Shown one piece after another: positions 1-54,057 of a DNA stretch of 64,000 bases; within the stretch, counting starts at the first letter, position 1, and the number at the start of each line of letters is the position of its first letter. The translations under genes were made by a program, and so were the position numbers. The DNA comes from Laetmonice hystrix (lineage: Eukaryota), in NCBI GenBank assembly GCA_965235115.1, contig OZ249436.1:4466001-4530000 (forward strand), read 5' to 3'. The notes under the pieces were generated by a model that was given only the letters and a program-made list of their open reading frames with translations, had not been told where the DNA came from and ran no database searches.

Positions 1-2982
1 TCACAGCATTTTCCACCCAACCGTTCACGAACGGCCTTGAACAGCGCCTTCTCAACCTTGGTCCGTTCTCGGATGTACTCGCGGGTTGAGAAAATTATTG
101 CTGTGTTCTGAAATGAAGATATGATCTGTAGATCCTCTGTCTGTAGAACGAGAATTATCCTCTTAAAAAGACAATTAATAAGAATAAACCTGTTGGCGCA
201 TATTTAACTAAAGGGAACTTGCATATACACTATAAACCTCCCTATGCTATTCGCAAACTCAGACTCCCGGGGGATAGTTTAACCCGATGCAACATTGCTG
301 ATAGTCCACCTTCATAGCATCCAGCGCGCTCGCGTAGAGGATATTCCTGTAGGCCAGGTCAAAGTTGTTGTGCAGTTCACGGAGTTGATGGGGACGCAGA
401 AAGTACCGAACGTAAACGGTTATTCCAATCTGACCAATGAATAGAAAATAACACTGATACAACTTCAAGACTGCAAAAAAAAATCACGACAATGCCTAAT
501 ACCAGAGATATACTTAGAGATGAAGGACTTGCAGTATTTGGAACATAATTTTGACGTAGGCCAGCTATAATCTTGATCATTATTATAGTAGATTTATGTC
601 TGTCACCTATTGCATAAGGATACCGCGTCCGCTATTTCTTACATGAAATGATAACCGTCTACACCACAAAGAGCTTGCCAGTATTGCTAATGCATGGTGT
701 GCCGTTCTTTTATAAATAAGCTTGTCACACTTGTGGCTTGCCATTCGTAGAGCGTCAAACTTGTGGCTTGCCACTCGCAGAGCGTCAAACTTGTGGCTTG
801 CCACTCGCAGAGTGTCAAGCTTGTGGCATGCCGCTCGTAGAGCGTCAAACTTGTGGCTTGCCACTCGTAGTGTCAAACATGTGGCTTGCCACTCGTAGAG
901 CGTCAAACTTGTGGTTTGCCACGCGTAGAGTGTCAAACTTGTGGTTTGCCACGCGTAGAGTGTCAAACTTGTGGCTTGCCATTCGCAGAGTGTCAAACTT
1001 GTGGCTTGCCACTCGTTGAGCGCAAACTTGTGGCTTGCCACTCGTTGAGCGTCAAACTTGTGGCTTGCCACTCGTAGTGCCAAACTTGTGGTTTGCCACG
1101 CGTAGAGTGTCAAACTTGTGGCTTGCCACTCGCAGAGTGTCAAACTTGTGGCTTGCCACTCGTGGAGTGTCAAAAACTTGTGGCTTGCCACTCGCGGAGT
1201 GTCAAACTTGTGGCTTGCCACTCGCAGAGTGTCAAACTTGTGGCTTGCCACTCGTGGAGTGTCAAACTTGTGGCTTGCCACTCGTGGAATGTCAAACTTG
1301 TGGCTTGCCACTCGTAGAGTGTCAAACTTGTGGCTTGCCACTCGTGGAGTCTTACCTGGAGTCGGTCTTTCGTAGCAATCTTAATTCCCCGGAACTGCTC
1401 ATTGTGCGAGTAGGCCCGGAACAATTTGAATTCCTTGTCAGGACCAATCAGATACCTCCCTGTAAAGTAAACCTTACTCGTGTCCACGGCCCCAGTCGTC
1501 CGGCTACGTATGAAACCCATCTACACAGAATCACATTTAGTCACATTAGTCATTTCTGGCAACTTTCGCCTTCCCTCCAGATGCCGGGAATTATTTTTCC
1601 CCTTCAAAATTCAAAAACTTTATGCGGGAGGCCACTGCATGTTCGCATCGCGCCTTTGGTGCCCGAGTGTATGGAATTCCGGCGACGACATGCGGGATGC
1701 GAGATGCGAGAAGCCAGATGGGACCAGCGAGATGCAACAAGCGACATGCTACCAGCGAGATGCTACCAGCGAGTTGCGAGAAGCGATTTCATTCTTCTAT
1801 CGCAGCGCATGCAAGCTACAGGAGAATGAAATCGCTTCTCACAACTCGCTGAATCTCGCTGGTAGCATGTCGCTTGTTGCATCTCGCTGGTCCCATCTCG
1901 CTTCTCGCTTCTCGCATGTCGTCGCCGGTATATTTTCACGACGGATTGTCCGAAAAAACCCTGAGCCCCCCCCCCTGCCTCTTAAAGCTATGGATATGGA
2001 ATAAAAGTAATAATGTGGTTTTTGTCCTATCATGACCACAATTTTTAGTTTGGGACTGGCTATTGACACTAACACGGAAACGGCCGACCTAAATTAGTTT
2101 GACTAATTCCGACACGAAACTGGGTGTTTGGGTTAGGGTAAAGGTTAGACCTAGGGTTAGTGTTAGTTTAGTCCCAAAATTGTTGTTAAACAGGCGCTAA
2201 TTTGATGTCGGTGTTTATAAGAAACATTCTATTTGCTATTGACACTGCTCGGTCCATGTCGCTTCGCATCTCGCATCTCGCTGGTCCCATGTCGCTTGTT
2301 GCATGTCGCTTCTCGCATCTCGCTGGCCCCATGTCGCTTTTTGTATCTCGCATCCCGCATGTCGTCGCCGGTATTCCATACGAGTGTATGGAATACCGGC
2401 GACGACATGCGAGAAGCGACATGGGACCGAATAGTGTCAATTTAGCACATAGAATGTTTCTTATTGACACCGATATCACGATCCACGTGCCTATTTAACA
2501 ATAGCATAATTTGGGGGCTAAACTTTTCCTAAAGTGAAAACTAACACTAACCCTAGGCATAACCTTTACCCTAACCCAAACACACTGTCTCGCATCTCGC
2601 ATGTCGTCGCCGGTATTCCATACGAGTGCGCCCCCCTTCGCACCCGTATCCGTCCCTGTTTTGCAGGCTATGTACAAACAAATACGTCAGTAGGTGCCCT
2701 TTGAGAAGACCCTGAACCCCACCCTTCAAGAAACCCAGGATCCGCGCCGGTTATCTAACAAATGTAGCCTGTTTTATGAAACATATGGTTAGGACATTCA
2801 GAACCTTAAGGGCGACCCTGTATAGTATATTTAGTAGGCCTACTGCATGGAGGCAAACATTAACGTTATCTTACCTCATGGTATTCCACGCCAGAAAAGC
2901 TGACTCCTAATAGTACACAGCCCACCAGGACCAGAGCACAGCACACCAAAACGATAAATCCCTTGAGACATCCTCGCTTCAT
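1..2982 (-). CDS. SPFH/Band-7 domain membrane protein, paralog A (3' part runs off the window start)
   Basis: Exons read by hand with GT-AG ends: 2982-2875 (MKRGCLKGFIVLVCCALVLVGCVLLGVSFSGVEYHE, N-terminal TM), 1520-1356 (MGFIRSRTTGAVDTSKVYFTGRYLIGPDKEFKLF...ATKDRLQ), 429-310 (IGITVYVRYFLRPHQL...ALDAMK), 107-<1 (NTAIIFSTREYIRERTKVEKALFKAVRERLGGKCC). Exon 2 and 3 sizes (165, 120) and phases match paralogs B-D. Confidence 0.85.
730..1351. repeat. 30-bp minisatellite (~21 copies) abutting the exon 2 donor of gene A
   Basis: Unit gtcaaacttgtggcttgccactcgtagagt; ends at the GTAAG donor (1355-1351). Confidence 0.95.
1660..2625. mobile_element. Nested palindromic/MITE-like repeats
   Basis: ccggcgacgacatgcg...cgcatgtcgtcgccgg inverted pairs (about 1679-1928, 2357-2411, again at 2598-2613), plus a longer imperfect inverted repeat about 2122-2270 vs 2410-2585. 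Confidence 0.6.
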
Positions 2983-4130
2983 CCTCTGAAAGATCAATAG
3001 AAGCCCACTCAAATCAAACAGGATTTTCACAAAAAAATAACCCCTTTCTTAAAGTTACCCTATCATCAATTAAAAGAAATATGGTGCATATTCCAGCACT
3101 GGGCGGCGAGACCCAACAGCGGAAGTGACGTATCTCGACCCTGTGAGCAACACCACAGATTACCATACACAATCTGTGGTAACACCAACACGTTGTCTTC
3201 ATACGGGACATTTAGCAGCAAAATATGTTCATCGAAAAACTTAAACGGATTAGTTTCTGTGATGTCATGAAGTGGATGGTAATAATGTTTATGGTATTTC
3301 TATCAATTTGATGACCAATGAAGAAAACAGAATATCTAGTCGATTGTTTCTGGTTGGATAATATTCTAGAAATCATTGACATCTAGGCCCCTATCTTTGA
3401 CCGGTCATGTCCGGCAAAGAGCATGATGTCGGCAGTAGGGCCTAGGCCTACATGTCGGCAGTAGGCCATGTCACTCGCGACTCCTCTACGCGGAGCTTAA
3501 AACTGCACAAGAAATTCCTCAAAAAGTTATCTTTTACGACATGTCAGCAACACCATTTTAAATTTTCAGGGTTGAATGGTCACAAAAATTGAGTTACAAT
3601 AATTATTGGCCGTCTCATTAATACTGTTCGGCCCGAACGCTATTTACGAGGTGAGGCTCGTAGAGATTGCCCTAAATACGACCATACCGGAAGTACTGCT
3701 TGCATAAGCCTGATGTCATAGCATAGGCACGTAGTGTATACCGGTAGAACCTGAATGCCGTGTATGGCGCGATATCGCTGTCATAAAAATCCCCACACGG
3801 CGATGGCTTCGCCTTAGCGCCAGGGCCCTCGCCGTGTGGCGACGGCCGTCGCCAATCTTGTGCAATGACTCCATTTAGTCTGTTCACGCGATGCCTCGCC
3901 ATAGCGCAAGGGCTGTCGCGGGATGGCGACGTCGATCGCGGAGGGCGACGAGGATCGCCAAAAAACGCGAGAGAACAGAAGAGATAACATCGCGGCAGGA
4001 CAAGATAAAAGGGCAGTTTAAAAACACCAAAGCCAAGGAAGCGAAGGACAAGGCATGGGGACTGATAGTCAGGACGTTTTTGCACTTTTTGCCTTTTTTA
4101 TTTCTTCAGCCTGCCATCACTTGGATAGCA

Positions 4131-13959: not shown

Positions 13960-14934
13960 ACACTTAGTTCAGTGGACTAGATATTGTTGACACTTAGTTC
14001 AGTGGACCAGATATTGACACTTAGTTCAGTGGACCAGATATTTATTGTTGACACTTAGTTCAGTGGACCAGATATATATTGTTGACACTTAGTTCAGTGG
14101 ACCAGATATTTATTGTTGACACTTAGTTCAGTGGACCAGATATTTATTGTTGACACTTAGTTCAGTGGACCAGATATTTATTGTTGACACTTAGTTCAGT
14201 GGACCAGATATTTATTGTTGACACTTAGTTCAGTGGACCAGATATTTATTGTTGACACTTAGTTCAGTGGACCAGATATATATTGTTGACACTTAGTTCA
14301 GTGGACCAGATATTTATTGTTGACACTTAGTTCAGTGGACCAGATATATATTGTTGACACTTAGTTCAGTGGACCAGACATTTATTGTTGACACTTAGTT
14401 CAGTGGACCAGACATTTATTGTTGACACTTAGTTCAGTGGACCAGATATATATTGTTGACACTTAGTTCAGTGGACCAGATATTTATTGTTGACACTTAG
14501 TTCAGTGGACCAGATATTTATTGTTGACACTTAGTTCAGTGGACCAGATATTTATTGTTGACACTTAGTTCAGTGGACCAGATATTTATTGTTGACACTT
14601 AGTTCAGTGGACCAGATATTTATTGTTGACACTTAGTTCAGTGGACCAGATATTTATTGTTGACACTTAGTTCAGTGGACCAGATATTTATTGTTGACAC
14701 TTAGTTCAGTGGACCAGATATTTATTGTTGACACTTAGTTCAGTGGACCAGATATTTATTGTTGACACTTAGTTCAGTGGACCAGATATTTATTGTTGAC
14801 ACTTAGTTCAGTGGACCAGATATTTATTGTTGACACTTAGTTCAGTGGACCAGACATTTATTGTTGACACTTAGTTCAGTGGACGACCAAATATATATTG
14901 ACACTTAGTTCAGTGGACCAGATATATATTGTTG
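13960..14934. repeat. 34-bp minisatellite (~28 copies) derived from the last codons and stop of gene B
   Basis: Unit acacttagttcagtggaccagatatttattgttg; the terminal copy is the coding QQYISGPLN*. Confidence 0.95.
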
Positions 14935-17900: not shown

Positions 17901-19113
17901 TCATGGTGGCTGAGATGGTCACCTGTGGAGGGGAGACAGTGATCACAATGAACCCATGTAGGTACGTCAGCTGGTGAGGTCGGTAAAAATAGATCATGGT
18001 GGCTGAGATGGTCACCTGTGGAGGGCAGACAGTGATCACAATGAACCCATGTAGGTACATCAGCTGGTGTGGTCGGAGAAAATAGATCATGGTGGCTGAG
18101 ATGGTCACCTGTGGAGGGGAGACAGTGATCACAATGAACTCATGTAGGTACGTCAGCTGGTGAGGTCGGTAAAAATAGATCATGGTGGCTGAGATGGTCA
18201 CCTGTGGAGGGCAGACAGTGATCACAATGAACCCATGTAGGTACGTCAGCTGGTGAGGTCGGTAAAAATAGATCATGGTGGCTGAGATGGTCATGCCCCC
18301 CATGCCCTCGTGGAGGGGGCAGACAAACGCCATTGTCCAAGATGAACACAAACAATAGGTTAGAAGGGGGGGGGGGGGTGTGCTCAATACTGGTCCTACC
18401 TCGAGTCGGTCGGCGTTGAAGACAGTCTGTCGAGAGAACACCTCGACATGCGCCTTGGCCGGGAAGATCTTGAACTCGTAGTCGGGTCCGGTCATATATC
18501 GACCTACTTGGTACACGTGGCTCACGTCTACACGTCCTGTCGTCCGGCGCCGTCGGAAACCCAGCTTAAGACATAATCGATTATTACCGCTTTTTCTATA
18601 TAACAAAGGCATTTAAAGATCATTTAACTCGATTAAAAGAAACATTGAGGGCGGGGGCCCCTTCCTAATTTGTGAATGGTAAAGGGGGATCGCTATTTTA
18701 CTCAAGCCAAAAGAACAACAAAAGCAACAACAACATTACAACAACAGCAGCAGCGGCATCAAGGAATCTAGCCAGAAATGCATTCCATTTACCACTAGCC
18801 TACCTGCCATATCAATACATAATATTCAATCACTTTAAGTGATTGATTAATTGATCTTTATCATTTCTGCCTTTGGATACGCTTACTCTTGAGGTGGTAC
18901 TTCCCCTCCTGAACATTTAGCAAGCATTTTTACCTGGGGGGCAGACCCCCCCCCCCCCCGCGCCGTACCCCCAGGAATCCCTGCCTTGAGGGGCGGTCTT
19001 ACCTCATAATACTCGATTCCATTGAAACTCATCGGCAATAACAGAATTAGAAGTAGAACCACTGCAGCAACCGCGATGGCAACTATAAATAAAATTTTCT
19101 TGACCTCCATCAT
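14905..19113 (-). CDS. SPFH/Band-7 domain membrane protein, paralog B (334 aa, 6 coding exons)
   Basis: Exons 19113-19003, 18564-18400, 17829-17710, 17556-17424, 16355-16144, 15168-14905 (111+165+120+133+212+264 nt). All introns are GT-AG and the joined frame is open to TAA. N-terminal TM, SPFH-like core (GRYMTGPDYEFKIFP; FNADRLEVTISATMIY; FTNREYFLERQKIEDALF; AEVRYFQL), Ala/Gln/Lys-rich coiled-coil tail. Confidence 0.88.
15249..15672. mobile_element. MITE with TTAA target duplication (Kolobok-like ends)
   Basis: TTAA|GGACAAGTGCTAGTGTGAGGCCAAAA ... TTTTGGCCTCACACTAGCACTTGTCC|TTAA. Confidence 0.85.
16768..17046. mobile_element. Palindromic MITE-like element with a short GGGTTA tract
   Basis: ccggtgt...acaccgg ends; internal inverted gtaccccatata / tatatggggagta motifs. 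Confidence 0.55.
17774..18293 (-). repeat. 93-bp tandem duplication of the acceptor plus 5' half of exon 3, gene B
   Basis: Acceptor AGs at 17830, 17923, 18016, 18109, 18202; each unit encodes 31 aa with no stop. Confidence 0.95.
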
Positions 19114-34800: not shown

Positions 34801-34877
34801 GAGAGTTTCCGAGGTCATCAGTTTGACCAGGGAAATATAGAAAATATTTCCCAACTTTGACCACAATATATTGGAAT

Positions 34878-38100: not shown

Positions 38101-39484
38101 ACGAGATAAACATTCGTGTTATAATATCTGTGACACAATGTATAAATTACGAGATAAACATTCGTGTTATAATATCTGTGACACAATGTATAAATTATTG
38201 GATAAACATTGGTGTTATAATATCTGTGACACAATGTATAAATTACTAGATAAGCATTCGTGTTATAATATCTGTGACACAATGTATAAATTACTAGATA
38301 AACATTCGTGTTATAATATCTGTGACACAATGTATAAATTACGAGATAAACATTCGTGTTATAATATCTGTGACACAATGTATAAATTACTAGATAAACA
38401 TTGGTGTTATAATATCTGTGACACAATGTATAAATTACGAGATAAACATTGGTGTTATAATATCTGTGACACAATGTATAAATTACGAGATAAACATTGG
38501 TGTTATAATATCTGTGACACAATGTATAAATTACTGGATAAACATTCGTGTTATAATATCTGTGACACAATGTATAAATTACTAGATAAACATTTGTGTT
38601 ATAATATCTGTGACACAATGTATAAATTATTGGATAAACATTGGTGTTATAATATCTGTGACACAATGTATAAATTACTAGATAAACATTCGTGTTATAA
38701 TATCTGTGACACAATGTATAAATTACTGGATAAACATTGGTGTTATAATATCTGTGACACAATGTATAAATTACTAGATAAACATTCGTGTTATAATATC
38801 TGTGACACAATGTATAAATTACTGGATAAACATTGGTGTTATAATATCTGTGACACAATGTATAAATTACTAGATAAACATTCGTGTTATAATATCTATA
38901 TCAATGAAAGTGACGAATTGGTAAGAAACTGATCAGTAACCGACCTGTAACCTGTCAGCCGCGAACACCTGTATTTTATTGAAGGACTCGAAGTGAGCAT
39001 CGGCTGGGAAGACTTTGAACTCGTAGTCGGGTCCGATGAGGTGGAGGCCCCCGCTGTAGACGTGTTTGATGTCCACCTCGCCAGTCGTCTTACGGCGACG
39101 GAACCCGTACTAAACATGAGGCCAAAACAAAGACTTCATCTCTTATTTGTAATATAATTGTTATTACAAAGCGTAAGCACAGTCGTAAGGTCATAAAGCG
39201 ACAAGAGATGATTAAAATTACAAAGAATTAATTTGCCTTAGCAATCTGAGAGTACAATGGCAGTAGGAATACAACCATTGATATTAAGAAATAAATCATT
39301 TGTCTTTTTACAATTGATAAATCGCCTGTGTATGGGAGTTTGAGTCACTTACCTGGTAGTATTCGAGCCTGCCAAAACTGAGGGGTACGAGGATGAGAGT
39401 GAGAACGAGGCCGACACCGAGGACAATCAGCACGATACAGAGTACGACCTTTGAGGGTGATCTCGAGATCTCTGACTCCGCCAT
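35096..39484 (-). CDS. SPFH/Band-7 domain membrane protein, paralog D (338 aa, 6 coding exons)
   Basis: Exons 39484-39353, 39109-38945, 36772-36653, 36133-36010, 35788-35577, 35359-35096 (132+165+120+124+212+264 nt), GT-AG, open to TGA. Clear homology to B and C in every exon (YGFRRRKTTGEVD...GPDYEFKVFP; AEVRYFQLHEL; AFDYLRTL). Confidence 0.88.
36089..36436 (-). repeat. 69-bp tandem duplication of the acceptor plus 5' part of exon 4, gene D
   Basis: Acceptor AGs at 36134, 36203, 36272, 36341, 36410; in-frame 23-aa unit YNNITCTQGAATLFTTREYIRKR. Confidence 0.95.
36793..38897. repeat. 48-bp minisatellite (~44 copies) filling intron 2 of gene D
   Basis: Unit tgtgacacaatgtataaattactagataaacattggtgttataatatc; occupies ~2.1 kb of a 2.17-kb intron. 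Confidence 0.96.
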
Positions 39485-39750
39485 TCTATACAACAGACAA
39501 CACCGGCTTGGAGTCAGAGATCGGAGACATACATGTATCCATGGATACACGCCTATAATAATGGCGCCATTCTATATACACAACAGACAACACCGGCTTG
39601 GAGTCAGAGGTCGGAGACATACATGTATCCATGGAAACACGACTCTGTACTGTAATAATGGCGCCATTCTATATACACAACAGACAACACCGGCTTGGAG
39701 TCAGAGGTCGGAGACATACATGTATCCATGGAAACACGACTCTGTATTAT
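39480..39750 (-). repeat. Three ~90-bp copies of the acceptor plus ATG of the gene D first coding exon
   Basis: gccattctata...caacagacaacaccggcttggagtcaga at 39480, 39566, 39663; the reverse strand reads tatag|A ATG GCG in each. Confidence 0.9.
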
Positions 39751-39964
39751 AATAAAGCCGATCGTATGTGTAAATGAACAACCATGGTGCTATATAGGAG
39801 TCAAGTTGGAGTGGCATGTGCTGCTTTGAGAAAGATATGGTTAGCATAATACCACCGATCTATCTTTCCACTTGTAGCATGAGTTTATGTCGTGTAGCAT
39901 TAAGATCGGTGATCGAGTTGTAATGCAACAAGTTCTACTGCTTTATTGTCGAGGGTGGAACCAG

Positions 39965-40393
39965 TCATGTTCCCACCCATGTTTCCACCCATGTTTCCAC
40001 CCATATTTCCACCCATGTTCCCACCCATGTCCCCACCCATGTTCCCACCCATGTTCCCACCCATGTTCCTATCCGTGACAAAATTAATTGGTACTCGACA
40101 CTCACCTTAATTTGTAATGTCGTGTGTTTTGGAAGTGGCGCTTGTAGCATGAACCTGAGATCGTCCCAATGTTACAAGCGTCGGTTTGTGATTATAGCCT
40201 GAACCTGAGATCGTCCCAATGTTACAAGCGTCGGTTTGTGATTGTAGCCTGAACCTGAGATCGTCCTGGTATCAATGTTACAAGCGTCGGTTTGTGATTG
40301 TAGCCTGAACCTGAGATCGTCCCAATGTTACAAGCGTCGGTTTGTGATTATAGCCTGAACCTGAGATCGTCCCAATGTTACAAGCGTCGGTTT
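39965..40393. repeat. 12-bp (catgttcccacc) and 50-bp tandem repeats flanking a candidate minus-strand donor at 40105
   Basis: 12-mer at 39965-40068; 50-mer gaacctgagatcgtcccaatgttacaagcgtcggtttgtgattatagcct x5 at 40151-40393; AG|GTGAGT between them. Confidence 0.85.
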
Positions 40394-41566
40394 CTCAAGG
40401 AGGTTGTTACAACCATGTACATGTTATCAGTCCTAGCTTTAGGTCACACGGTAACTGTGACGGAAAATCCGGGATAGATCAGGTCAGGAGACTGTGCCTA
40501 GATAAGTAAGATCCGGGACCCACTCCCCTTAATCGGCTCGGTAGGAAAGGCTAGCCATGAAATCTGTCACTCAGATACACATGAGGTGAAACTATCGCCA
40601 CGTGCTCCACACCCTCAAATGTTTACACAATCTCAGTCTGGGATCCAGGATTTTGTAAAGGGGCGGCCACCTAAAATTCGTTTTAGCCTCGCTACGCTCC
40701 GCATGATTTGATTGTGCCTGTATTACACACACGTATAATTGCTATTAACACACGTGTAAATGTTTTATTTTATTCAAATACTTCAAATATAGTCTCAACA
40801 TCCTCATTAAAAAAGAAGGAAAATCTAAGGGGGGACCGGCCCCATGGACCCCCCAGTGAATCTTATGGTATACATAGTCAGCAATGGGGTAAGTCAGATG
40901 GACAGGTCACTCCGAGTTCAAAAGTAATCAGTGATATGTGTTGAGTATATCATGTATACATTGTTATAGATACACCTATGGAAACTTTGGGATGGTGATT
41001 TAAATTGATTGTTAGGAAAAAGACTTGTCACAAACAGATAAACTCTGTCTTGTTTATCATAAATCAAGTGTCATGAAATACGGAATGGAACTCGATGTAA
41101 ATGGTATGCTATCACAAAACACGAGACTTAGATAGCGTCTGATGCCAGGATGTACACGGTCGATATAGATACGCCTACAAACAGGTGGGGAAACCGAGCC
41201 GTACATATTGAATTCTTGACACCTTGCCAAACCCGACGGTCAGCATTCATTTCCATGCCAATCCCTTTGATCGATAGAGTATTTTTGGAAACGCCGATAA
41301 AAACTTCACGCTACACTTACAGGAACCATTGTCCCGTAGCCTGTCATTGACGGTAGAGGGATGTTTAGGTTATTTGTCTCAACAAGATGTGGCTTGGGTG
41401 TCCTAGTTCCATCTATAGCTGGTGCATGGCTGAGTTCCGGGAACGGAGGGGCATGCACGGCCTGCTTGCTGGACTCTCTGACCCTCTCCGGTCGTCGGAA
41501 CACAGATCAGATTATGTTGATGAGGCAGTTCCGTGAACTCAGATCACAAAACGAGGGAGATACTCA

Positions 41567-42335
41567 ACCCTCACTGTAGCATCAGGAGGGCGTGCCAGGA
41601 CAAGGTAAAGTACCATTACCCTCACTCTAACATCAGGAGGGCGTGCCAGACCGAGGTAAAGTACCACTACCCTCACTGTAACATCAGGAGGGCGTGCCAG
41701 GCCGAGGTAAAGTACCACTACCCTCACTGTAACATCAGGAGGGCGTGCCAGGCCGAGGTAAAGTACCACTACCCTCACTGTAGCATCAGGAGGGCGTGCC
41801 AGACCGAGGTAAAGTACCACTACCCTCACTGTAGCATAAGGAGGGCGTGCCAGGCCGAGGTAAAGTACCACTACCCTCACTGTAGCATCAGGAGGGCGTG
41901 CCAGGCCGAGGTAAAGTACCACTACCCTCACTGTAACATCAGGAGGGCGTGCCAGGACGAGGTAAAGTACCACTACCCTCACTGTAGCATAAGGAGGGCG
42001 TGCCAGGCCGAGGTAATTTAAAGTACCACTACCCTCACTGTAGCATAAGGAGGGCGTGCCAGACCGAGGTAAAGTACCACTACCCTCACTGTAGCATCAG
42101 GAGGGCGTGCCAGGCCGAGGTAAAGTACCACTACCCTCACTGTAGCATCAGGAGGGCGTGCCAGACCGAGGTAAAGTACCACTACCCTCACTGTAGCATA
42201 AGGAGGGCGTGCCAGACCGAGGTAAAGTACCACTACCCTCACTGTAACTACAGGAGGGCGTGCCAGGCCGAGGTAAAGTACCACTACCCTCACTGTAACA
42301 TCAGGAGGGCGTGCCAGGCCGAGTTAAAGTACCAT
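41567..42335 (+). repeat. 51-bp minisatellite (~15 copies), nearly every unit containing AG|GTAAAG
   Basis: Unit cctcactgtagcatcaggagggcgtgccaggccgaggtaaagtaccactac. Confidence 0.93.
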
Positions 42336-42685
42336 TCATCTCCATGTAATAGTAAAGGTTTACGATTACCATAGTCAATGAGAACAAAATTTCCATGGTT
42401 GTTATTGGGCCATGCAGATTGGAACTGGGCCATGGATAACTCCCGAGCTGATCTGATATATAGACTGAGTGGGTCAGAGATCATCCCGTTATTTGGAATA
42501 TTTAACATGCTGTCTCTGACACAGGTCTGTAGTTGTGTGTATACAGAAAGTTGCCGCAGTCGGGGAATGATCAGAGGCAACGTCAGCCAACATATGTTCG
42601 TAATCAGATTTTTCATCATCAGATTTTCATAATCTTCAACTGAGGCAGTTAGAACATACGATTCTAGTCGATCTTCCACCCCCAC

Positions 42686-42830
42686 GGCCCGGTTTTTAGT
42701 TCATCATTTTACCAATCTTAAGACTGGTATTTTAAGACTGACTTGTGTTATGGTCTCTCATTGGCTGACTTCATTTGAAGGACCAATAAGAAGCTCTGAA
42801 ACAAGAGTTTAGTCTTAAGTTATTGAATTA
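42686..42830. mobile_element. Truncated copy of the CWG MITE family
   Basis: ggcccggttttttagttcatcattttaccaatcttaagact..., matching 55431 onward. Confidence 0.75.
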
Positions 42831-42935
42831 TTAAAATTAGAATTAATAATTAATAATTCAATTAGTTACATCGATGACGGAATGTAGAAATGTCGAAAAC
42901 CTGCTGAAAGCGACGATCAGAGAGACTGTACTAAT

Positions 42936-43079
42936 CAGTGGCGGATCCAGGGGGATGGGGGTTGTAACCCGCCTCCTTATTAAGTAACGTGTGTGTTATT
43001 TCATCTTTTTTTCTACTTGAAAGGTTCAAACCAAACATATACACCCCCCCTCCTTAGCGCCAACCTGGATCCGCCCCTG
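42936..43079. mobile_element. Small hAT-like MITE with 5-bp TSD
   Basis: ctaat|CAGTGGCGGATCCAGG ... CCTGGATCCGCCCCTG|ctaat. Confidence 0.7.
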
Positions 43080-43168
43080 CTAATTACATCATATCATGCA
43101 AGCTATATTTCCTCTAGGTTTAATGTTTTAATGAGTGACATGCAGGTAAAAGCAGTTACTTTGAACTC

Positions 43169-44233
43169 CTGTATACACACCTGTTAATCGATACTTCTGT
43201 AACCTTTTAGGAGACGTGAAGATGGCGGAGAATGTGGCAAAGATTGCTGTGTTAGCAGCGGTAGTCGCTGTGGCCCTGTATACACACCTGTTAATTGATA
43301 CCTCTGTAACCTTTTAGGAGACGTGAGGATGGCGGAGAATGTGGCAAAGATTGCTGTGTTAGCAGCGGTAGTCGCTGTGGCCCTGTATACACACCTGTTA
43401 ATTGATACCTCTGTAACCTTTTAGGAGACGTGAGGATGGCGGAGAATGTGGCAAAGATTGCTGTGTTAGCAGCGGTAGTCGTTGTGGCCCTGTATACACA
43501 CCTGTTAATCGATACCTCTGTAACCTTTCAGGACGTGAAGATGACGGAGAATGTGGCAAAGATTGCTGTGTTAGCAGCGGTGGTCGTTGTGGCCCTGTAT
43601 ACACACCTGTTAATCGATACCTCTGTAACCTTTCAGGACGTGAAGATGACGGAGAATGTGGCAAAGATTGCTGTGTTAGCAGCGGTGGTCGCTGTGGCCC
43701 TGTATACACACCTGTTAATTGATACCTCTGTAACCTTTTAGGAGACGTGAGGATGGCGGAGAATGTGGCAAAGATTGCTGTGTTAGCAGCGGTGGTCGCT
43801 GTGGCCCTGTATACACACCTGTTAATTGATACCTCTGTAACCTTTCAGGAGACGTGAAGATGGCGGAGAATGTGGCAAAGATTGCTGTGTTAGCAGCGGT
43901 GGTCGCTGTGGCCCTGTATACACACCTGTTAATCGATACCTCTGTAACCTTTCAGGACGTGAAGATGACGGAGAATGTGGCAAAGATTGCTGTGTTAGCA
44001 GCGGTAGTCGTTGTGGCCCTGTATACACACCTGTTAATCGATACCTCTGTAACCTTTCAGGACGTGAAGATGACGGAGAATGTGGCAAAGATTGCTGTGT
44101 TAGCAGCGGTGGTCGCTGTGGCCCTGTATACACACCTGTTAATCGATACTTCTGTAACCTTTCAGGAGACGGGAAGATGACGGAGCATGTGGCAAAGATT
44201 GCTGTGTTAGCAGCGGTAGTCGCTGTGGCCCTG
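43169..44233 (+). repeat. Ten 105/107-bp copies of the acceptor, ATG and first ~19 codons of gene E
   Basis: ATGs at 43222, 43329, 43436, 43541, 43646, 43753, 43860, 43965, 44070, 44177. Confidence 0.95.
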
Positions 44234-47200
44234 CTAACCATCAGCTTGCTCGCTGTGTCTTTAGAAAAACTAAATTCCGATGAAGGTTTGTTACTGAATT
44301 ATTTAATTGCCATAACGACTTTGATATCTTTGTTATCCACAACTGGATGTCAGAGAAACCATATACTATATACTCTGCACTAGGGGATTCAGAGGGGGGG
44401 GGGGCAGGGGACCCGGTCCCCCTTATATTTTCCTTCTTTTTATGAAGATGTTATGACTATATTTGAATAATATATAGTATATGAATAATTAAAAACAATT
44501 AAAAGTGTGTTAATAGCAATTATTTTGTGTGTGTAATACAGGCACAATCAAATCATGCCAAGCATAGCGAGGCTAACATTTTTTGGCTGTGTGTGCCCCT
44601 TCCCCCTTATCAAAATCCTGGACCCCCCCCCCCCCCCCCACACTGCTCTGTTATCTTTCCGCACGGGCAATGATAGATGAACTATTTGTTTGATTTTCAG
44701 TTGCGTTAATGTATGACACAGTCAGTAAAAGTCTGGACGAGAAGCCGCGGTACGAAGGTCTGCACAATGGACCACCCGGCTTCGAGTTCATCGTCTTCCC
44801 GTCAGTCTTCAGGACGTACGAGTTCTCAGCCCTCACGGTAGGCGGCGCTACAATCATCTTATTCACCCTGGCCCAAAAGTCGTATATGAAAGAACTATAG
44901 AAAGATGGCAATTGGTCTAAATATCTCTGTTTATATGTATATGTTTTCTATAGTATAGCACTTTGTTTACTCAAGGTAACGTTGGCACGTACAATTTCTT
45001 GAAGGACAGTGTTCTTCTTGAAAGACAGTCCATAAAGTAGAACACCATTGTATATAATATTGAAAAGGGAAATGATAAATGGAAAAGTAACAGTTTCCCA
45101 TTAATAATCGTGCAGTAATTCTCGAATAAAATCCATGAGTTCAGCCAAGGTGGGTTGGTGCAACTAAATACTGGCGATGGGTCATACCGGAGACAGTCGA
45201 GCTGAGCGTCCGTATCTAGCTCAGGCGGACTTGAATCCAGGTGGAAATTTATGCCAGGAGGGATATAGACGCCCACGTGGTCCTTGTTATAAACTAAGCC
45301 TAACATATAATACACCTAACCACTGGGATTGACATGACCCGTGACGTCAAGCGACAGAGATCGGGGTTATTTGTAAGTCGAGTATTGGGGTGCGTTTAAT
45401 CTACAGTCCACAAACTACATTGTATTTCGTACCATAGGTCGGTATGCTTACAGGTCTGACATAATAAAAACCCGCTCGATGGAAAATTCCCATCGATGAC
45501 TAAAATAGGGACTATAAAGGCGTTGAAAGCGGACTCATTTTAAGGCACTCCCGTTTCTCCTCCCGCTTCGCTGCCCATAGTAATTCATCATTCAGTCGGT
45601 CCAAATATGTAGGCCTGTTGTAGATGCCAACTTGAATTATGTTATTTTTGGCGTAGAAAACGTTTGAAAACCTGGCATCCTTATAGATACCTCAATAAGT
45701 TGTCGTAATGAAGAACGTAGACCGATTCATTATATAAGTGGCCACTCCCGATAACTCACATCGTGGTTTTACGATGGGTTGACTCATCAATGTCAACTAT
45801 TGCCACCAGATGGCAGCACACTTCTGCAGTGCCCGCCGTATCATGGTGTTGTCATGTCGATGTTTGTTCCCGCAGTGTTTGCCCTATCTTGGTGTTGTCA
45901 TGTCGGTGTTTGTGTCCGCAGTGTTTGCCCTATCATGGTGTTGTCATATCGATGTTTGTGTCCGCAGTGTTTGCCCTATCATGGTGGTCTCATATATCGA
46001 TGTTTGTGTCCGCAGTGTTTGCCCTATCATGGTGTTCTCATATATCGATGTTTGTGTCCGCAGTGTTTGCCCTATCATGGTGTTGTCATGTCGATGTTTG
46101 TGTCCGCAGTGTTTGCCCTATCATGGTATTGTCATATATCGATGTTTGTGTCCGCAGTGTTTGCCCTATCATGGTGTTGTCATGTCGATGTTTGTGTCCG
46201 CAGTGTTTGCCCTATCATGGTGTTGTCATGTCGATGTTTGTGTCCGCAGTGTTTGCCCTATCATGGTATTGTCATATATCGATGTTTGTGTCCGCAGTGT
46301 TTGCCCTATCATGGTGGTCTCATATATCGATGTTTGTGTCCGCAGTGTTTGCCCTATCATGGTGTTGTCATATCGATGTTTGTGTCCGCAGTGTTTGCCC
46401 TATCATGGTGTTGTCATATCGATGTTTGTGACCGCAGTGTTTGCCGTATCATGGTGTTGTCATATCAATGTTTGTGTCCGCAGTGTTTGCCCTATCATGG
46501 TGTTGTCATGTCGATGTTTGTGTCCCCAGTGTTTGCCCTATCATGGTGTTGTCATGTCGATGTTTGTGTCCGCAGTGTTTGCTCTATCATGGTGTTGTCA
46601 TGTCGATGTTTGTGTCCGCAGTGTTTGCTCTATCATGGTGTTGTCATATCGATGTTTGTGTCCGCAGTGTTTGCCCTATCATGGTGTTGTCATGTCGATG
46701 TTTGTGTCCGCAGTGTTTGCCCTATCATGGTGTTGTCATATCGATGTTTGTGTCCGCAGTGTTTGCCCTATCATGGTGTTGTCATATCGATGTTTGTGTC
46801 CGCAGTGTTTGCCCTATCATGGTGGTCTCATATATCGATGTTTGTGTCCGCAGTGTTTGCCCTATCATGGTGGTCTCATATATCGATGTTTGTGTCCGCA
46901 GTGTTTGCCCTATCATGGTATTGTCATGTCGATGTTTGTGTCCGCAGTGTTTGCCCTATCATGGTGTTGTCATGTCGATGTTTGTGTCCGCAGTGTTTTC
47001 CCTATCATATGATGTTGTCATATCGATGTTTGTGTCCGCAGTGTTTGCCCTATCATGGTATTGTCATGTCGATGTTTGTGTCCGCAGTGTTTGCCCTATC
47101 ATGGTGTTGTCATATCGATGTTTGTGTCCGCAGTGTTTGCCCTATCATGGTGTTGTCATATCGATGTTTGTGTCCGCAGTGTTTGCCCTATCATGGTGTT

Positions 47201-50200
47201 GTCATGTCTATGTTTGTGTCCGCAGTGTTTGCCCTATCATGGTGTTGTCATATCGATGTTTGTGTCCGCAGTGTTTGCCCTATCATGGTGTTCTCATATA
47301 TCGATGTTTGTGTCCGCAGTGTTTGCCCTATCATGGTGTTGTCATATATCGATGTTTGTGTCCGCAGTGTTTGCCCTATCATGGTGTTGTCATATTGATG
47401 TTTGTGTCCGCAGTGTTTGCCCTATCATGGTGTTGGCATATCGATGTTTGTGTCCGCAGTGTTTGCCCTATCATGGGTTGTCATATCGATGTTTGTGTCC
47501 GCAGTGTTTGCCCTATCATGGTGTTGTCATGTCTATGTTTGTGTCCGCAGTGTTTGCCCTATCATGGTGTTGTCATATCGATGTTTGTGTCCGCAGTGTT
47601 TGCCCTATCATGGTGTTGTCATGTCGATGTTTGTGTCCGCAGTGTTTGCCCTATCATGGTGTTGTCATGTCGATGTTTGTGTCCGCAGTGTTTGCCCTAT
47701 CATGGTGTTGTCATGTCGATGTTTGTGTCCGCAGTGTTTGCCCTATCATGGTGTTGTCATATCGATGTTTGTTTCCTCTATCATGATGTTGTCATGTCGA
47801 TGTTTGTGTCCGCAGTGTTTGCCCTATCATGGTGTTGTCATGTCGATGTTTGTGTCCGCAGTGTTTGCCCTATCATGGTGGTCTCATATATCGATGTTTG
47901 TGTCCGCAGTGTTTGCCCTGTCATGGTGTTGTCATATCGATGTTTGTGTCCGCAGTGTTTGCCCTATCATGGTGTTGTCATATCGATGTTTGTGTCCGCA
48001 GTGTTTGCCCTATCATGGTGTTGTCATATCGATGTTTGTGTCCGCAGTGTTTGCCCTATCATGGTGGTCTCATATATCGATGTTTGTGTCCGCAGTGTTT
48101 GCCCTGTCATGGTGTTGTCATATCGATGTTTGTGTCCGCAGTGTTTGCCCTATCATGGTGTTGTCATATCGATGTTTGTGTCTGCAGTGTTTGCCCTATC
48201 ATGGTGTTGTCATGTCGATGTTTGTGTCCGCAGTGTTTTCCCTATCATGGTGTTGTCATGTCGATGTTTGTGTCCGCAGTGTTTGCCCTATCATGGTGTT
48301 GTCATGTCGATGTTTGTGTCCGCAGTGTTTGCCCTATCATGGTGTTGTCATGTCGATGTTTGTGTCCGCAGTGTTTTCCCTATCATGGTGTTGTCATGTC
48401 GATGTTTGTGTCCGCAGTGTTTGCCCTATCATGGTGTTGTCATGTCGATGTTTGTGTCCGCAGTGTTTGCTCTATCATGGTTTTGTCATGTCGATGTTTG
48501 TGTCTGCAGTGCCCGCCGTATCATGGTGTTGTCACATCGATGTTTGTTTCCTCTATCATGGTGTTGTCATGTCGATGTTTGTTTCTGCAGTGTTTATCCA
48601 ATCATGGTGTTGTCATGTCGATGTTTGTTTCTGCAGTGTTTATCCAATCATGGTGTTGTCATGTCGATGTTTGTGTCCGCAGTGTTTGCCCTATCATGGT
48701 GTTGTCATGTCGATGTTTGTGTCCGCAGTGTTTGCCCTATCATGGTGTTGTCATGTCGATGTTTGTGTCCGCAGTGTTTGCCCTATCATGGTGTTGTCAT
48801 ATCGATGTTTGTGTCCGCAGTGTTTGCCCTATCATGGTGTTCTCATATCGATGTTTGTGTCCGCAGTGTTTGCCCTATCATGGTGTTCTCATATATCGAT
48901 GTTTGTGTCCGCAGTGTTTGCCCTATCATGGTGTTGTCATATATCGATGTTTGTGTCCGCAGTGTTTGCCCTATCATGGTGTTGTCATATTGATGTTTGT
49001 GTCCGCAGTGTTTGCCCTATCATGGTGTTGGCATATCGATGTTTGTGTCCGCAGTGTTTGCCCTATCATGGGTTGTCATATCGATGTTTGTGTCCGCAGT
49101 GTTTGCCCTATCATGGTGTTGTCATGTCTATGTTTGTGTCCGCAGTGTTTGCCCTATCATGGTGTTGTCATATCGATGTTTGTGTCCGCAGTGTTTGCCC
49201 TATCATGGTGTTGTCATGTCGATGTTTGTGTCCGCAGTGTTTGCCCTATCATGGTGTTGTCATGTCGATGTTTGTGTCCGCAGTGTTTGCCCTATCATGG
49301 TGTTGTCATGTCGATGTTTGTGTCCGCAGTGTTTGCCCTATCATGGTGTTGTCATATCGATGTTTGTTTCCTCTATCATGATGTTGTCATGTCGATGTTT
49401 GTGTCCGCAGTGTTTGCCCTATCATGGTGTTGTCATGTCGATGTTTGTGTCCGCAGTGTTTGCCCTATCATGGTGGTCTCATATATCGATGTTTGTGTCC
49501 GCAGTGTTTGCCCTGTCATGGTGTTGTCATATCGATGTTTGTGTCCGCAGTGTTTGCCCTATCATGGTGTTGTCATATCGATGTTTGTGTCCGCAGTGTT
49601 TGCCCTATCATGGTGTTGTCATATCGATGTTTGTGTCCGCAGTGTTTGCCCTATCATGGTGGTCTCATATATCGATGTTTGTGTCCGCAGTGTTTGCCCT
49701 GTCATGGTGTTGTCATATCGATGTTTGTGTCCGCAGTGTTTGCCCTATCATGGTGTTGTCATATCGATGTTTGTGTCTGCAGTGTTTGCCCTATCATGGT
49801 GTTGTCATGTCGATGTTTGTGTCCGCAGTGTTTTCCCTATCATGGTGTTGTCATGTCGATGTTTGTGTCCGCAGTGTTTGCCCTATCATGGTGTTGTCAT
49901 GTCGATGTTTGTGTCCGCAGTGTTTGCCCTATCATGGTGTTGTCATGTCGATGTTTGTGTCCGCAGTGTTTTCCCTATCATGGTGTTGTCATGTCGATGT
50001 TTGTGTCCGCAGTGTTTGCCCTATCATGGTGTTGTCATGTCGATGTTTGTGTCCGCAGTGTTTGCTCTATCATGGTTTTGTCATGTCGATGTTTGTGTCT
50101 GCAGTGCCCGCCGTATCATGGTGTTGTCACATCGATGTTTGTTTCCTCTATCATGGTGTTGTCATGTCGATGTTTGTTTCTGCAGTGTTTATCCAATCAT

Positions 50201-53200
50201 GGTGTTGTCATGTCGATGTTTGTTTCTGCAGTGTTTATCCAATCATGGTGTTGTCATGTCGATGTTTGTGTCCGCAGTGTTTGCCCTATCATGGTGTTGT
50301 CATGTCGATGTTTGTGTCCGCAGTGTTTGCCCTATCATGGTGTTGTCATGTCGATGTTTGTGTCCGCAGTGTTTGCCCTATCATGGTGTTGTCATATCGA
50401 TGTTTGTGTCCGCAGTGTTTGCCCTATCATGGTGTTCTCATATCGATGTTTGTTTCTGCAGTGTTTATCCAATCATGATGTTGTCATGATGTTTGTTTCC
50501 GCAGTGTCTGAACAAGGACGGGGTGAGGATCGTACTCTCCATCAGTTATCAGTACAGAGTGCGGCCGAGGGAGCTGCACAGACTAGTCATGCAGTTCAAG
50601 GACCACGAGGGATTCAAACAGATACTCGGATCTATTGGTAGGGAAATTCTTGCTGATACATATGTTTCAAGATTATATCGGGTGGATAAAAAAAAACGCC
50701 CCGAACTTTAAACTTCAATATTTCAAAAAGTAATGATTGTAATTCAATGAAATTTTTCTTAATATCACTTCATGATGTTGTCTCTTAGTTGTCAATGTTA
50801 CAACTCAATAGCTTGGATAATATTTCCGTAGCACTAAAAACAAAAATCATTGTACAAAAGCGCAATGCCGGGCTAAAGTGAGTTGTAGTCGCTCCTAGAG
50901 TCCCTGGCCTCACACTAGAGTAGGAGGTCAATCGGTCCCCCGTTTTCACTCCATACTGCTCTCAGTCTCTTTTTCCATGAGCCGATGCACTTCCTGATCT
51001 CTGATAGGAAAATATCTTCCCAACACTGGGAAATACGCAACGTTCTGAATGTGTTGCTAAACGTGATAATGATACGATTGCCCTTGAACTTCTCGTTACA
51101 GTCATATCGTCCTAATGTTGCAGTTTCTCTGTAGGGTTTGGCACATTAAACATCTGTTTTTCTCTAAAAGTGCTAGGAATAGCACATATTTTATTATATC
51201 TAGTGGTCCACAACATTATACATATTGTGAAACATGCAAAAACTAAATATTGATTTTTTTTACCCAAGGTACAATGCGGTGCATCAAACAGGTGTTAAAT
51301 TGGACACCTGGCAGCTGCATGATATTTGACCTAATTCCGGCATTGCGTTTTTAGACACTGATTTTGGTTTTTAGTGCCACGGGATTCATATCAATGCCAT
51401 TGAGCTGAAACTTGAACATACCAGAGATAATATCATGAAGTGATATTAGGAGAAATTTTATTGAATTAGAAAGCATAGTTTTTGAAATATTAAAGTTTAA
51501 AGTTCGGGGCGTTTTTTTTTATCCACCCGATATATGTGCAGTGGTGAATATTATATGGCAAGTGATCCTTAAAACTCGGGAGGCCCCCTATATTTCTTCT
51601 TTTCTTCATCTGCCTTCTTCCTCTTCTTCTTCCTCTTCCTCCTCTTCCTCCTCCTCCTCCTTCTCCCCTCCGCTTTCTTTTTCTTCCTAATTGAGGTGAA
51701 CACCAATGTGCGGAGAAAGTCATTTGACGGTCACACGTGTTGTTACTTGTGAACACCAATGTGTGGATAATGTCAGTTGACGGTCACACGTGTTGTTACT
51801 TGTGAACACCAATGTGTGGATACAGTCAGTTGACGGTCACACGTGTTGTTACTTGTGAACACCAATGTGTGGATAATGTCAGTTGACGGTCACACGTGTT
51901 GTTACTTGTGAACACCAATGTGTGGAGACAGTCAGTTGACGGTCACACGTGTTGTTACTTGCGAACACCAATGTGTGGAGGAAGTCAGTTGACGGTCACA
52001 CGTGTTGTTACTTGTGAACACCAATGTGTGGAGACAGTCAGTTGACGGTCACACGTGTTGTTACTTGTGAACACCAATGTGTGGATACAGTCAGTTGACG
52101 GTCACACGTGTTGTTACTTGTGAACACCAATGTGTGGAGACAGTCAGTTGACGGTCACACGTGTTGTTACTTGTGAACACCAATGTGTGGAGACAGTCAG
52201 TTGACGGTCACACGTGTTGTTACTTGTGAACACCAATGTGTGGAGACAGTCAGTTGACGGTCACACGTGTTGTTACTTGTGAACACCAATGTGTGGAGAC
52301 AGTCAGTTGACGGTCACACGTGTTGTTACTTGTGAACACCAATGTGTGGAGACAGTCAGTTGACGGTCACACGTGTTGTTACTTGTGAACACCAATGTGT
52401 GGATAATGTCAGTTGACGGTCACACGTGTTGTTACTTGTGAACACCAATGTGTGGAGACAGTCAGTTGACGGTCACACGTGTTGTTACTTGTGAACACCA
52501 ATGTGTGGAGGAAGTCAGTTGACGGTCACACGTGTTGTTACTTGTGAACACCAATGTGTGGAGACAGTCAGTTGACGGTCACACGTGTTGTTACTTGTGA
52601 ACACCAATGTGTGGAGACAGTCAGTTGACGGTCACACGTGTTGTTACTTGTGAACACCAATGTGTGGAGGAAGTCAGTTGACGGTCACACGTGTTGTTAC
52701 TTGCGAACACCAATGTGTGGAGGAAGTCAGTTGACGGTCACACGTGTTGTTACTTGTGAACACCAATGTGTGGAGACAGTCAGTTGACGGTCACACGTGT
52801 TGTTACTTGTGAACACCAATGTGTGGAGACAGTCAGTTGACGGTCACACGTGTTGTTACTTGTGAACACCAGTGTGTGGAGGAAGTCAGTTGACGGTCAC
52901 ACGTGTTGTTACTTGTGAACACCAGTGTGTGGAGGAAGTCAGTTGACGGTCACACGTGTTGTTACTTCCAGGAGAGTCAGCACTACACGACGCTTGTAGT
53001 CGGTTCAACACGTCGCAGTTCCAGGCGGAGCGGGGAGCATTTCAAGAGGAGGTTCGCGCACGTTTGGTCGAGAAATACGACGACATCGCCACAGATGTTA
53101 CAGATCTACAGGTTAGGACCTGAGACAAACATAGAAAACGGAAATAAAGACAGACATAAAAGGCATCCCTTTGGGGAAAGGAGAATGTAAATGAATGTTT

Positions 53201-54057
53201 GCTTGCACGGTTAAAAAACAGTGAATGAACAAAATACAATAAATCGACTCCTTGAATTGCAAACTTGATGATTTCTTCTCTCGCTATGAGCTTACTGAGG
53301 ATCCACAACAAACTCCACTAAATATTGTGTAAAGATCACATTGAGACTAGGTCTATATTAAAATGTTTAATGTTCAGGTAAACAATATACAGCGGCCGGG
53401 AGAATACGAGAAGGCTGTCCGGACGAAAGAGGAAGCGCGTGAAGATATCGTTGTGGCGGAGAACGAGCGGCCACGGAGAATCACGGAAGCTCAGACCAAG
53501 AAACGGGCCGCTCTGACACAGGCTGACATCATCATTGATAAGGCCCTCTCTGACGCCAGGATAGCCGAGAACAGGTCGGTTAGAATGATGACGCATGACG
53601 GCATGTGACGTCATGGTGCGTTTTATGACGTCATGATGCGTATGGTGGTTAAGGAGATGTTGCGTAACTTTAACTCGAGGTGTATCTCTATGTAGGCCTA
53701 AGGGACGGTGTATCGTATGTAAACAAAGTCAACATCCTTACAGCAGCACGTCGGTCCTGAAGGATCAGCGGTTGCTCCACTTGGATGGTTGGCATTTCAG
53801 CTACACAACTTTCTGTTACGGTAGAATCTTTAAGAAAATTGTGTTTTGATGATTTCAGAGCCAAGGCGGAGGCGGAGGGGATTCTCAACGATTACCAGAA
53901 GGAGGCGGAGGCGTACAAAAGTCTGATCGACTCGAGCGGGCTGGGAATGAACACAGAGGGATTCCTCGCCTACCTCGGGGTCAGAGTTATTGAGGATGCC
54001 AAAAACCCCGTCTATATCGGCATGAAGGCCCCAGCCAAAACAAACTGGCTCAACTAA
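44177..54057 (+). CDS. SPFH/Band-7 domain membrane protein, divergent type E (304 aa, 6 coding exons)
   Basis: Exons 44177-44285, 44701-44837, 50505-50637, 52972-53111, 53378-53574, 53859-54057 (109+137+133+140+197+199 nt), GT-AG, phases consistent, open to TAA. TM helix, then EGLHNGPPGFEFIVFP, CLNKDGVRIVLSISYQYRV, FNTSQFQAERGAFQEEV, DVTDLQVNNIQRPGEYEKAV and an AKAEAEG coiled coil, as in prohibitin/HflC-like proteins. Confidence 0.9.
45820..50508 (+). repeat. 46/48-bp minisatellite (~100 copies) copying the exon 3 acceptor of gene E
   Basis: Unit tatcatggtgttgtcatgtcgatgtttgtgtccgcagtgtttgccc; the last copy gtttgtttccgcag|TGT is the real splice site; internal 1595-bp higher-order duplication. 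Confidence 0.96.
50678..51530 (-). mobile_element. Internally deleted Tc1/mariner-superfamily transposon
   Basis: TA-flanked long TIRs tcgggtggataaaaaaaaacgccccgaactttaaact...; minus-strand remnant 51040-50915 LRISQCWEDIFLSEIRKCIGSWKKRLRAVWSENGGPIDLLL* resembles a Tc1/mariner transposase C-terminus. Confidence 0.85.
51696..52967. repeat. 53-bp minisatellite (~24 copies) abutting the exon 4 acceptor of gene E
   Basis: Unit gtgaacaccaatgtgtggagacagtcagttgacggtcacacgtgttgttactt; the last copy continues as ccag|exon. Confidence 0.96.

Follow-up and report, generated by a model that had tools for sequence, protein, structure and literature searches.

The gene cluster

The window analysed here is a stretch of 64,000 nucleotides of Laetmonice hystrix (C1:4,466,001-4,530,000, on contig G000:C1) in a 627-Mb animal assembly of 35 contigs. 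It carries a cluster of five genes, A to E, whose products we assign to the SPFH superfamily from sequence and predicted structure. Self-comparison of repeat-masked reading frames revealed four homologous sets of exons on the minus strand, and the gene models were built from coordinates. In all five genes the reading frames are open and every intron is GT-AG. Genes A to D are four intact six-exon paralogs of 334-338 residues on the minus strand, which we call type 1, and E is a single gene of 304 residues on the opposite strand, which we call type 2.

Gene A (1-2982, minus, 335 residues) has its first exons at 2982-2875, 1520-1356, 429-310 and 107-1. Its exon 4 extends 26 nucleotides beyond the window edge, and exons 5 and 6 lie to the left of the window (G000:C1:4461738-4461527 and 4461348-4461079), where the gene ends at G000:C1:4461079. 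Gene B (14905-19113, minus, 334 residues) comprises exons 19113-19003, 18564-18400, 17829-17710, 17556-17424, 16355-16144 and 15168-14905; gene C (23240-28855, minus, 334 residues) comprises 28855-28745, 27195-27031, 26381-26262, 25476-25344, 24095-23884 and 23503-23240; and gene D (35096-39484, minus, 338 residues) comprises 39484-39353, 39109-38945, 36772-36653, 36133-36010, 35788-35577 and 35359-35096. Gene E (44177-54057, plus) has exons at 44177-44285, 44701-44837, 50505-50637, 52972-53111, 53378-53574 and 53859-54057. Exons 2, 3, 5 and 6 of B, C and D measure 165, 120, 212 and 264 nucleotides, with intron phases 0,0,0,1,0; exon 4 has 133 nucleotides in B and C and 124 in D, and A follows the same plan with an exon 6 of 270. 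The rebuilt models thus bear out the earlier, sequence-only reading of this DNA, which had described four tandem minus-strand paralogs with common exon sizes and phases. The proteins of B and C are 78% identical, C and D 58%, B and D 56%, and A differs more from the others (45-55%). E is only 21-26% identical to A-D (E-value 1e-7 to 1e-11). That E has intron positions of its own holds for four of the five introns when it is compared with D; intron 1 falls in the same alignment column, offset by one base.

The start codons of D (39484) and E (44177) point away from each other across 4,693 bp, close to the 4.7 kb first estimated. This interval (39485-44176) is a candidate shared regulatory region. 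The ATG exons of both genes are preceded by acceptor-like sites, so that transcription of D and E probably starts deeper inside the interval. Donor-like sites at 40105 (minus) and 41605 (plus) might be the ends of untranslated first exons of the two genes, in which case their transcription starts would be less than about 1.5 kb apart. Gene E is transcribed and spliced as modelled: a 1,320-nucleotide contig of sequencing run X4 skips introns 4 and 5 at GT..AG and has its loose end at the end of exon 3, hence covering the splicing of exons 3-6, whereas runs X1 and X2, taken from that sample too, continue through the E introns. Among the matches listed in the sequencing-run search, no run that holds one is on record as RNA. 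Run X4 also contains 0.48 of the sequence words of the D stretch, which we do not count as evidence for D. The size of the X4 contig suggests about 39 nucleotides of transcript 5' of the E start codon.

When the genome was searched with exons 6 and 2 of D, each query found at least four places, all inside the cluster; two E exons found at least one place each, here, and these counts are lower bounds. The 60 kb to the left of the window hold no further type-1 paralog. The sequence-only reading had counted at least four type-1 genes; their number in this genome appears to be exactly four, and E appears to be single-copy.

Two types of SPFH protein

Homolog searches with single exons gave no match. 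In a direct Pfam scan of 25 single exons, Band_7 (PF01145) was found only in E exons 3 and 4, below the cut-off (16.0 and 14.1 against 23.6 bits), and in none of the exons of A-D. The membership of the window proteins was judged through their relatives and through their scores on the profiles of their own families (408, 441, 446 and 447 bits for A to D on the type-1 profile, i.e. 408-447, and 417 bits for E on the type-2 profile). A profile of exon 2 retrieved 294 proteins at an E-value of at most 0.001 among 1.84 billion; the best 150 of these 294 were listed and a mixed alignment added 60. The relatives split into two groups: type 1, whose full-length animal proteins are 35-57% identical to A-D, and type 2, at 41-61% identity to E. 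The search for Band_7, proposed earlier as a check, came out in favour of membership, since the domain exceeds its curated cut-off in 19 of the 20 full-length relatives scanned.

Structure points the same way. We used as stand-ins the predicted models of two Asterias rubens proteins, P0037 (type 1, about 44% identical to D) and P0215 (type 2, about 57% identical to E), with predicted local confidence (pLDDT) of 84 and 80. Both models have an N-terminal anchor helix, SPFH1, SPFH2, a long helix and a short C-terminal helix. They match HflC, PHB and erlin chains (E-value about 1e-13 to 1e-10, 10-20% identity), as well as stomatin, flotillin and MVP chains. The two types align with each other over 272 columns (probability 99, E-value 6e-18), and the profile of the opposite type gives the window proteins 37-57 bits, against at most 31 bits for canonical references, some of which are partial models. 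Taken together, sequence profiles and predicted folds identify both types as SPFH proteins.

Among the matches listed, type 1 bears the names Asterias, Acanthaster, Patiria, Amphiura, Apostichopus, Glandiceps, Saccostrea, Argopecten, Stylophora, Branchiostoma and Watersipora, and type 2 the names Asterias, Crassostrea/Magallana, Brachionus and Rotaria. Vertebrate, insect and nematode names are missing from these matches, most of which are unnamed, so that this does not establish absence. The sequence-only reading had spoken of an animal SPFH cage. The two families reach beyond animals: the green alga Coccomyxa has a type-1-like protein, lacking the insert described below, and a type-2-like Atlas cluster is mostly ciliate. 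No relatives were found in viral contigs searched with P0123, in plasmids, or in a pattern scan of 185,579 prokaryote genomes with the type-2 alignment (two short patterns of low sensitivity); one Arthrobacter phage protein matches at 25%.

Separation from known subfamilies

The genome has its own complement of canonical SPFH genes. A Band_7 search returned 14 other matches at about 11 loci, all on C1, C3, C7, C8, C18, C29 and C30 (L007-L017). A single erlin (C1:5.74 Mb), PHB1 and PHB2 were confirmed against solved structures and lie outside the cluster, the two prohibitins as separate, unlinked genes on C29 and C30. The remaining loci we take by eye to be five stomatin-like loci, an intronless SLP-2, a stomatin-like gene and a flotillin. 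The window proteins are 11-21% identical to these proteins and to HflK, HflC and QmcA of E. coli.

Trees were built as a quick larger version, in which the long branches of erlin and flotillin were misplaced, then with 38 rows and a better alignment, and then with 37 rows leaving out flotillin, whose position is unstable (long branch, partial model). Several of the canonical references are partial models from one genome. In the 38-row tree type 1 forms one group (support 100/99), as does type 2 (89/88), and a clade of stomatin, SLP-2 and QmcA (98/96) excludes both. Without flotillin the support of type 2 rises to 100/99, and a branch (93/89) splits types 1 and 2 from the nine canonical references. 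The window proteins group with mollusc sequences, which by itself would point to a lophotrochozoan animal. Approximately unbiased (AU) tests reject neither type 2 with PHB (p 0.175) nor type 2 with erlin (p 0.17), and the trees do not settle the deep placement relative to prohibitin and erlin. The claim that these genes are none of the canonical PHB1/2, stomatin, flotillin or erlin nevertheless stood, given that the types form their own groups and that the true PHB1, PHB2 and erlin are elsewhere. The idea that E might be the PHB2 or erlin ortholog was discarded on the latter ground. By sequence, the pair belongs to the SPFH superfamily but falls outside the HflK/C, PHB1/2 and erlin1/2 subfamilies.

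Comparison with the known systems makes this separation more concrete. The prohibitins PHB1 and PHB2 form a mitochondrial cage of 11 heterodimers. They are the nearest solved sequences by profile and the top fold match of type 2, but their identity to the window proteins is just 14-21%, their genes are unlinked, the window anchors are much more hydrophobic, and type 1 has a cysteine insert. Erlin1 and Erlin2 form a cage of 13 heterodimers in the lumen of the endoplasmic reticulum (ER) (10.1101/2025.04.21.649849). The window proteins share with erlins a single N-terminal membrane helix and the succession of SPFH1, SPFH2, long helix and C-terminal helix (fold match E-value 1e-12 to 1e-10), and may have a luminal topology like theirs. 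Yet they are 12-17% identical to the erlin of this genome, erlin lacks the cysteine insert, and erlin paralogs are 74% identical where types 1 and 2 are about 20% identical. HflK and HflC offer a different likeness: two divergent SPFH subunits with N-terminal anchors are encoded by adjacent genes (hflK-hflC in E. coli). HflC is the top fold match of type 1, and in E. coli it has an unrelated insert in the very loop where type 1 has its own. However, two of the five proteins scanned match the NCBIfam models TIGR01932/TIGR01933 at 17-25 bits against cut-offs of 134-427, the other three do not match them, and the window genes are divergent and spliced instead of forming a co-directional operon, with no FtsH partner known. 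Stomatin, SLP-2 and flotillin share the SPFH fold with the window proteins at 12-18% identity; the first two belong to a clade outside which both types fall, and flotillins lack a transmembrane helix, whereas A-E (304-338 residues) all have a hydrophobic one at the N-terminus.

The database names of the relatives are mostly 'uncharacterized' or 'Band 7 domain-containing', and a few read 'prohibitin 2' or 'HflC'. Type-2 proteins auto-named 'prohibitin-2', 'Prohibitin' or 'HflC' (P0218/P0219, P0188, P0183, P0208) group with E all the same. None of the literature consulted by title and start of abstract describes the type-1/type-2 pair, although several of these searches were mostly off-topic and subscription journals and supplements lay outside their scope; in the parts seen of a stomatin phylogeny (PMC2258279) no such group was noticed. 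Subscription papers, supplements or curated subfamily databases such as PANTHER or CDD may already carry a label for it.

Recurrence of the head-to-head arrangement

A conserved head-to-head synteny in other organisms had been set beforehand as a test of the sequence-only reading. The type-2 alignment was used to scan metagenome contigs and hit 56 loci; 50 of these were set aside because the sequence upstream of their first detected type-2 exon is shorter than 3.7 kb. A type-1 gene lies directly upstream on the opposite strand in three of the six informative loci, with start codons 255 bp (L042), 1,230 bp (L057) and 1,736 bp (L065) apart. None of the 13 loci with at least 6 kb downstream has a type-1 gene on that side. 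In the 38-row tree the type-1 protein of L042 groups with Stylophora (94/93) and type 2 of L065 with E (99/98); L057 is unplaced. With hosts assigned from trees alone, the layout would span at least one cnidarian-like and one bilaterian lineage. The recurrence of the arrangement in half of the informative contigs, one of them cnidarian-like with starts 255 bp apart, is new here. In L065 (4694-11318) a type-1 gene is accompanied by two type-2 genes in tandem. This mirrors the type-1 expansion in the window, so that either side of the pair can be duplicated.

The cysteine insert and the anchor

In animal type-1 proteins the last helix and strand of SPFH2 are separated by an insert that measures about 25-30 residues. 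Its six cysteine columns are conserved in 35/35, 35/35, 34/35, 31/33, 34/34 and 34/34 animal type-1 rows. In D the cysteines are Cys173, 174, 178, 183, 187 and 193 (approximately 35740-36035, minus, split by intron 4), and A, B and C have the insert too. Type 2 and the insert-less type-1 relatives do without it; type 2 has two conserved cysteines of its own (23/25 and 25/25 rows). The spacing of the six presumably resembles that of disulfide knots, and the insert may form a disulfide-bonded knob.

Each of A-E has a single strongly hydrophobic segment, at its N-terminus, with a hydrophobicity of 2.85-3.56 against 1.71 for PHB1. An N-x-S/T site is retained in 23 of 33 type-1 rows; in type 2, 14 of 25 rows keep one such sequon. 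The strongly hydrophobic single anchor, the six conserved cysteines and the conserved N-x-S/T site suggest that the SPFH domains are luminal or extracellular, which we regard as fairly probable.

A proposed two-subunit cage

Every known SPFH complex is either a homo-oligomer or built from heterodimers of two paralogs, and in the solved heterodimeric ones the subunits alternate (10.1101/2025.04.21.649849). The sequence-only reading had paired E with the type-1 subunits A-D. Complex prediction lends this pairing weak support: P0037 with P0215 scored 0.60 against 0.00 for the best of three controls, the runs agreeing in at least 92% of contacts with partner pLDDT of at least 81. For comparison, 51 of 78 solved pairs attained the mark, as did 2 of 108 mismatched ones (39/65 and 2/126 in eukaryotes). 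The ratio of four type-1 genes to one type-2 gene, on the other hand, is not general, as L065 shows. We consider it likely that the two types bind each other. The conserved divergent layout, together with this prediction, makes an alternating two-subunit cage the best reading of the locus. That A-D and E are two old sister SPFH subfamilies, distinct from the prohibitins, erlin, stomatins and flotillin of this genome, and form a co-regulated cage with one N-terminal helix anchor per subunit, probably facing the lumen or the exterior, seems to us a rather better than even proposition as a whole. The A-D and E genes would be co-expressed from the divergent interval, acting as a putative promoter region. 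Their products would then alternate side by side in a domed membrane cage of about 22-26 subunits, like HflK/C, PHB1/2 and erlin1/2. HflK/C and PHB cages confine membrane proteins or proteases; by analogy, this one may fence off a patch of membrane with its client proteins, and it would probably face the secretory lumen or the cell exterior.

Several observations weigh against this view. Passing scores of no more than 0.60 were obtained by just 5 of the 78 solved pairs but by all 4 passing mismatches (of 180), and similar complexes have already been solved, so that likeness to them may drive the pass of P0037 with P0215. The prediction concerns stand-in proteins in one two-chain hetero pair, and the eukaryote calibration leaves out close relatives of a partner. 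No type-1 gene lies within 7-10 kb upstream of L053 and L054, apparently one rotifer-like gene, or in the 3.7 kb upstream of L062. Both Asterias species have type 1 and type 2 on contigs of one size (22,587,610 and 24,821,337 bp), which is consistent with a location on one chromosome but does not establish adjacency, and neither does the proximity of gene identifiers in Asterias rubens (LOC117291453, LOC117291835, LOC117291956). The splicing support from RNA covers gene E alone and not A-D. As for topology, type-2 sequons are not enriched (36 against 41 +/- 6), type-1 sequons are only slightly so (67 against 54 +/- 7, reached by 10 of 300 shuffles), cytosol-type stomatins have equally many, and animal type 1 gives a mixed picture for the charges that flank the anchor, the N side being the more positive in 10 of 25, with 6 ties.

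Some of these points would fit a system in which each type forms its own homo-oligomeric ring, as in stomatin or QmcA, and the head-to-head genes go back to an old inverted duplication whose layout has persisted through a shared enhancer or slow rearrangement, and not through a need for matched subunits. Copy ratios vary, from 4:1 here to at least 1:2 in L065 and at least 2:1 in Asterias rubens; L053/L054 lack the linkage, the weak complex pass concerns a hetero pair, and an Erlin2 homo-oligomer exists in the PDB (9wff). We hold this to be unlikely in view of the same orientation and short spacing in four distinct tree lineages, although the types are about 20% identical, and of the co-occurrence of both types in Asterias. 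Less likely still would be a heteromeric cage with its SPFH domains in the cytosol or the mitochondrial intermembrane space, i.e. a second, divergent prohibitin-like system in which the cysteines bind zinc or are lipidated. The best PDB sequence matches of both profiles are indeed prohibitins (E-value 8e-10 for type 2, 0.008 for type 1), some databases auto-name type-2 proteins 'prohibitin 2', the AU test tolerates type 2 with PHB (p 0.175) and the sequon evidence is weak. But the anchor is far more hydrophobic than that of PHB1, the genome has its own PHB1 and PHB2, and the cysteines are presumably spaced as in disulfide knots.

One might also suppose that D and E are the only functional pair and that A-C are redundant or decaying tandem copies, leaving no variable-subunit system. 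B and C have exchanged sequence by gene conversion (17705-18293 and 26257-26722): exon 3 and its 93-bp array are 96.6% identical across 465 bp, and synonymous divergence (dS) is 0.07 in exon 3, about 1.5 in exons 2 and 4 and intermediate in exons 5-6. The RNA splicing support, moreover, does not extend to A-C. This possibility is nonetheless very improbable: A to D all keep an open frame and the full set of six cysteines, overall non-synonymous divergence (dN) between B and C is 0.14 against a dS of 0.67, and in the larger quick tree A is joined by a protein of different origin, and so is D (Shimodaira-Hasegawa-like approximate likelihood ratios of 85 and 93), which suggests old paralogs. A-D are thus intact, and under purifying selection where tested (B against C). 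A pseudogene cluster was ruled out by the open frames and by a dN far below dS for B against C, and chance or a repeat artefact by intact frames, splicing and homologs.

Returning to the alternating cage, E would in this species be the sole type-2 subunit for four type-1 paralogs. Interchangeability of A-D on one E is plausible, given that E seems to have one copy and that all of A-D are intact and, where tested, under purifying selection; it requires that each of them binds E, and we regard it as somewhat doubtful. The fullest version of the proposal is tentative and, as a whole, rather unlikely: an undescribed two-subunit SPFH cage of animals, older than animals themselves and facing the lumen or the surface, whose pair would have stood head-to-head on a shared promoter since before the split of cnidarians and bilaterians, whose type 1 would have gained a disulfide knob in animals, and in which swaps of A-D on a constant E would give cages with different outer surfaces and clients.

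Repeats and neighbouring genes

Minisatellite arrays in the cluster tend to stop where exons begin or end: of 27 exons, 14 abut the end of an array (mean 5.6 and maximum 13 in 2,000 random draws), and 13 of the 19 arrays abut an exon. They include arrays at 723-1350, 14014-14935, 17774-18293, 22342-23231, 26323-26722, 27198-28630, 36089-36435, 36801-38897, 39490-39753, 43168-44233, 45839-50507 and 51696-52967. Many array units duplicate a splice acceptor with the exon start, or the end with the stop codon, giving runs of decoy sites. In E exon 4, splicing uses the last copy of the duplicated acceptor (run X4).

The cluster is flanked by a COMMD exon on the left (L002 9282-9587, domain match) and a galactosyltransferase reading frame on the right (57236-58384, minus). 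The latter is a single frame of 382 residues, convergent with E, with a Galactosyl_T domain (E-value 8e-41) and almost no cover in run X4. Further left (L002-L003, G000:C1:4441600-4450400, plus) we recognise by eye a gene that combines VWA-like, collagen and EGF-like parts. Intron 4 of gene A holds an open frame, presumably reverse-transcriptase-like, at about G000:C1:4463378-4464496 (L001).

Implications

SPFH cage structures have so far been solved one family at a time, and the ER is said to have no known SPFH proteins other than erlins (10.1101/2025.04.21.649849). Since conserved linkage names the partner directly, co-expression and cryo-electron microscopy of the type-1/type-2 pair are straightforward. 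The 4:1 locus is also a natural test of whether exchanging subunits alters the size of a cage or its clients. If our reading is true, type-2 proteins auto-labelled 'prohibitin 2' would need renaming, and SPFH proteins would have a new eukaryotic branch, found in cnidarians, molluscs, rotifers, bryozoans, echinoderms, hemichordates and amphioxus with relatives in protists, whose subunits, about 20% identical, are as distinct as a bacterial pair of the HflK/C type. The locus suggests that a two-subunit membrane cage has been overlooked alongside the prohibitin, erlin, stomatin and flotillin complexes.

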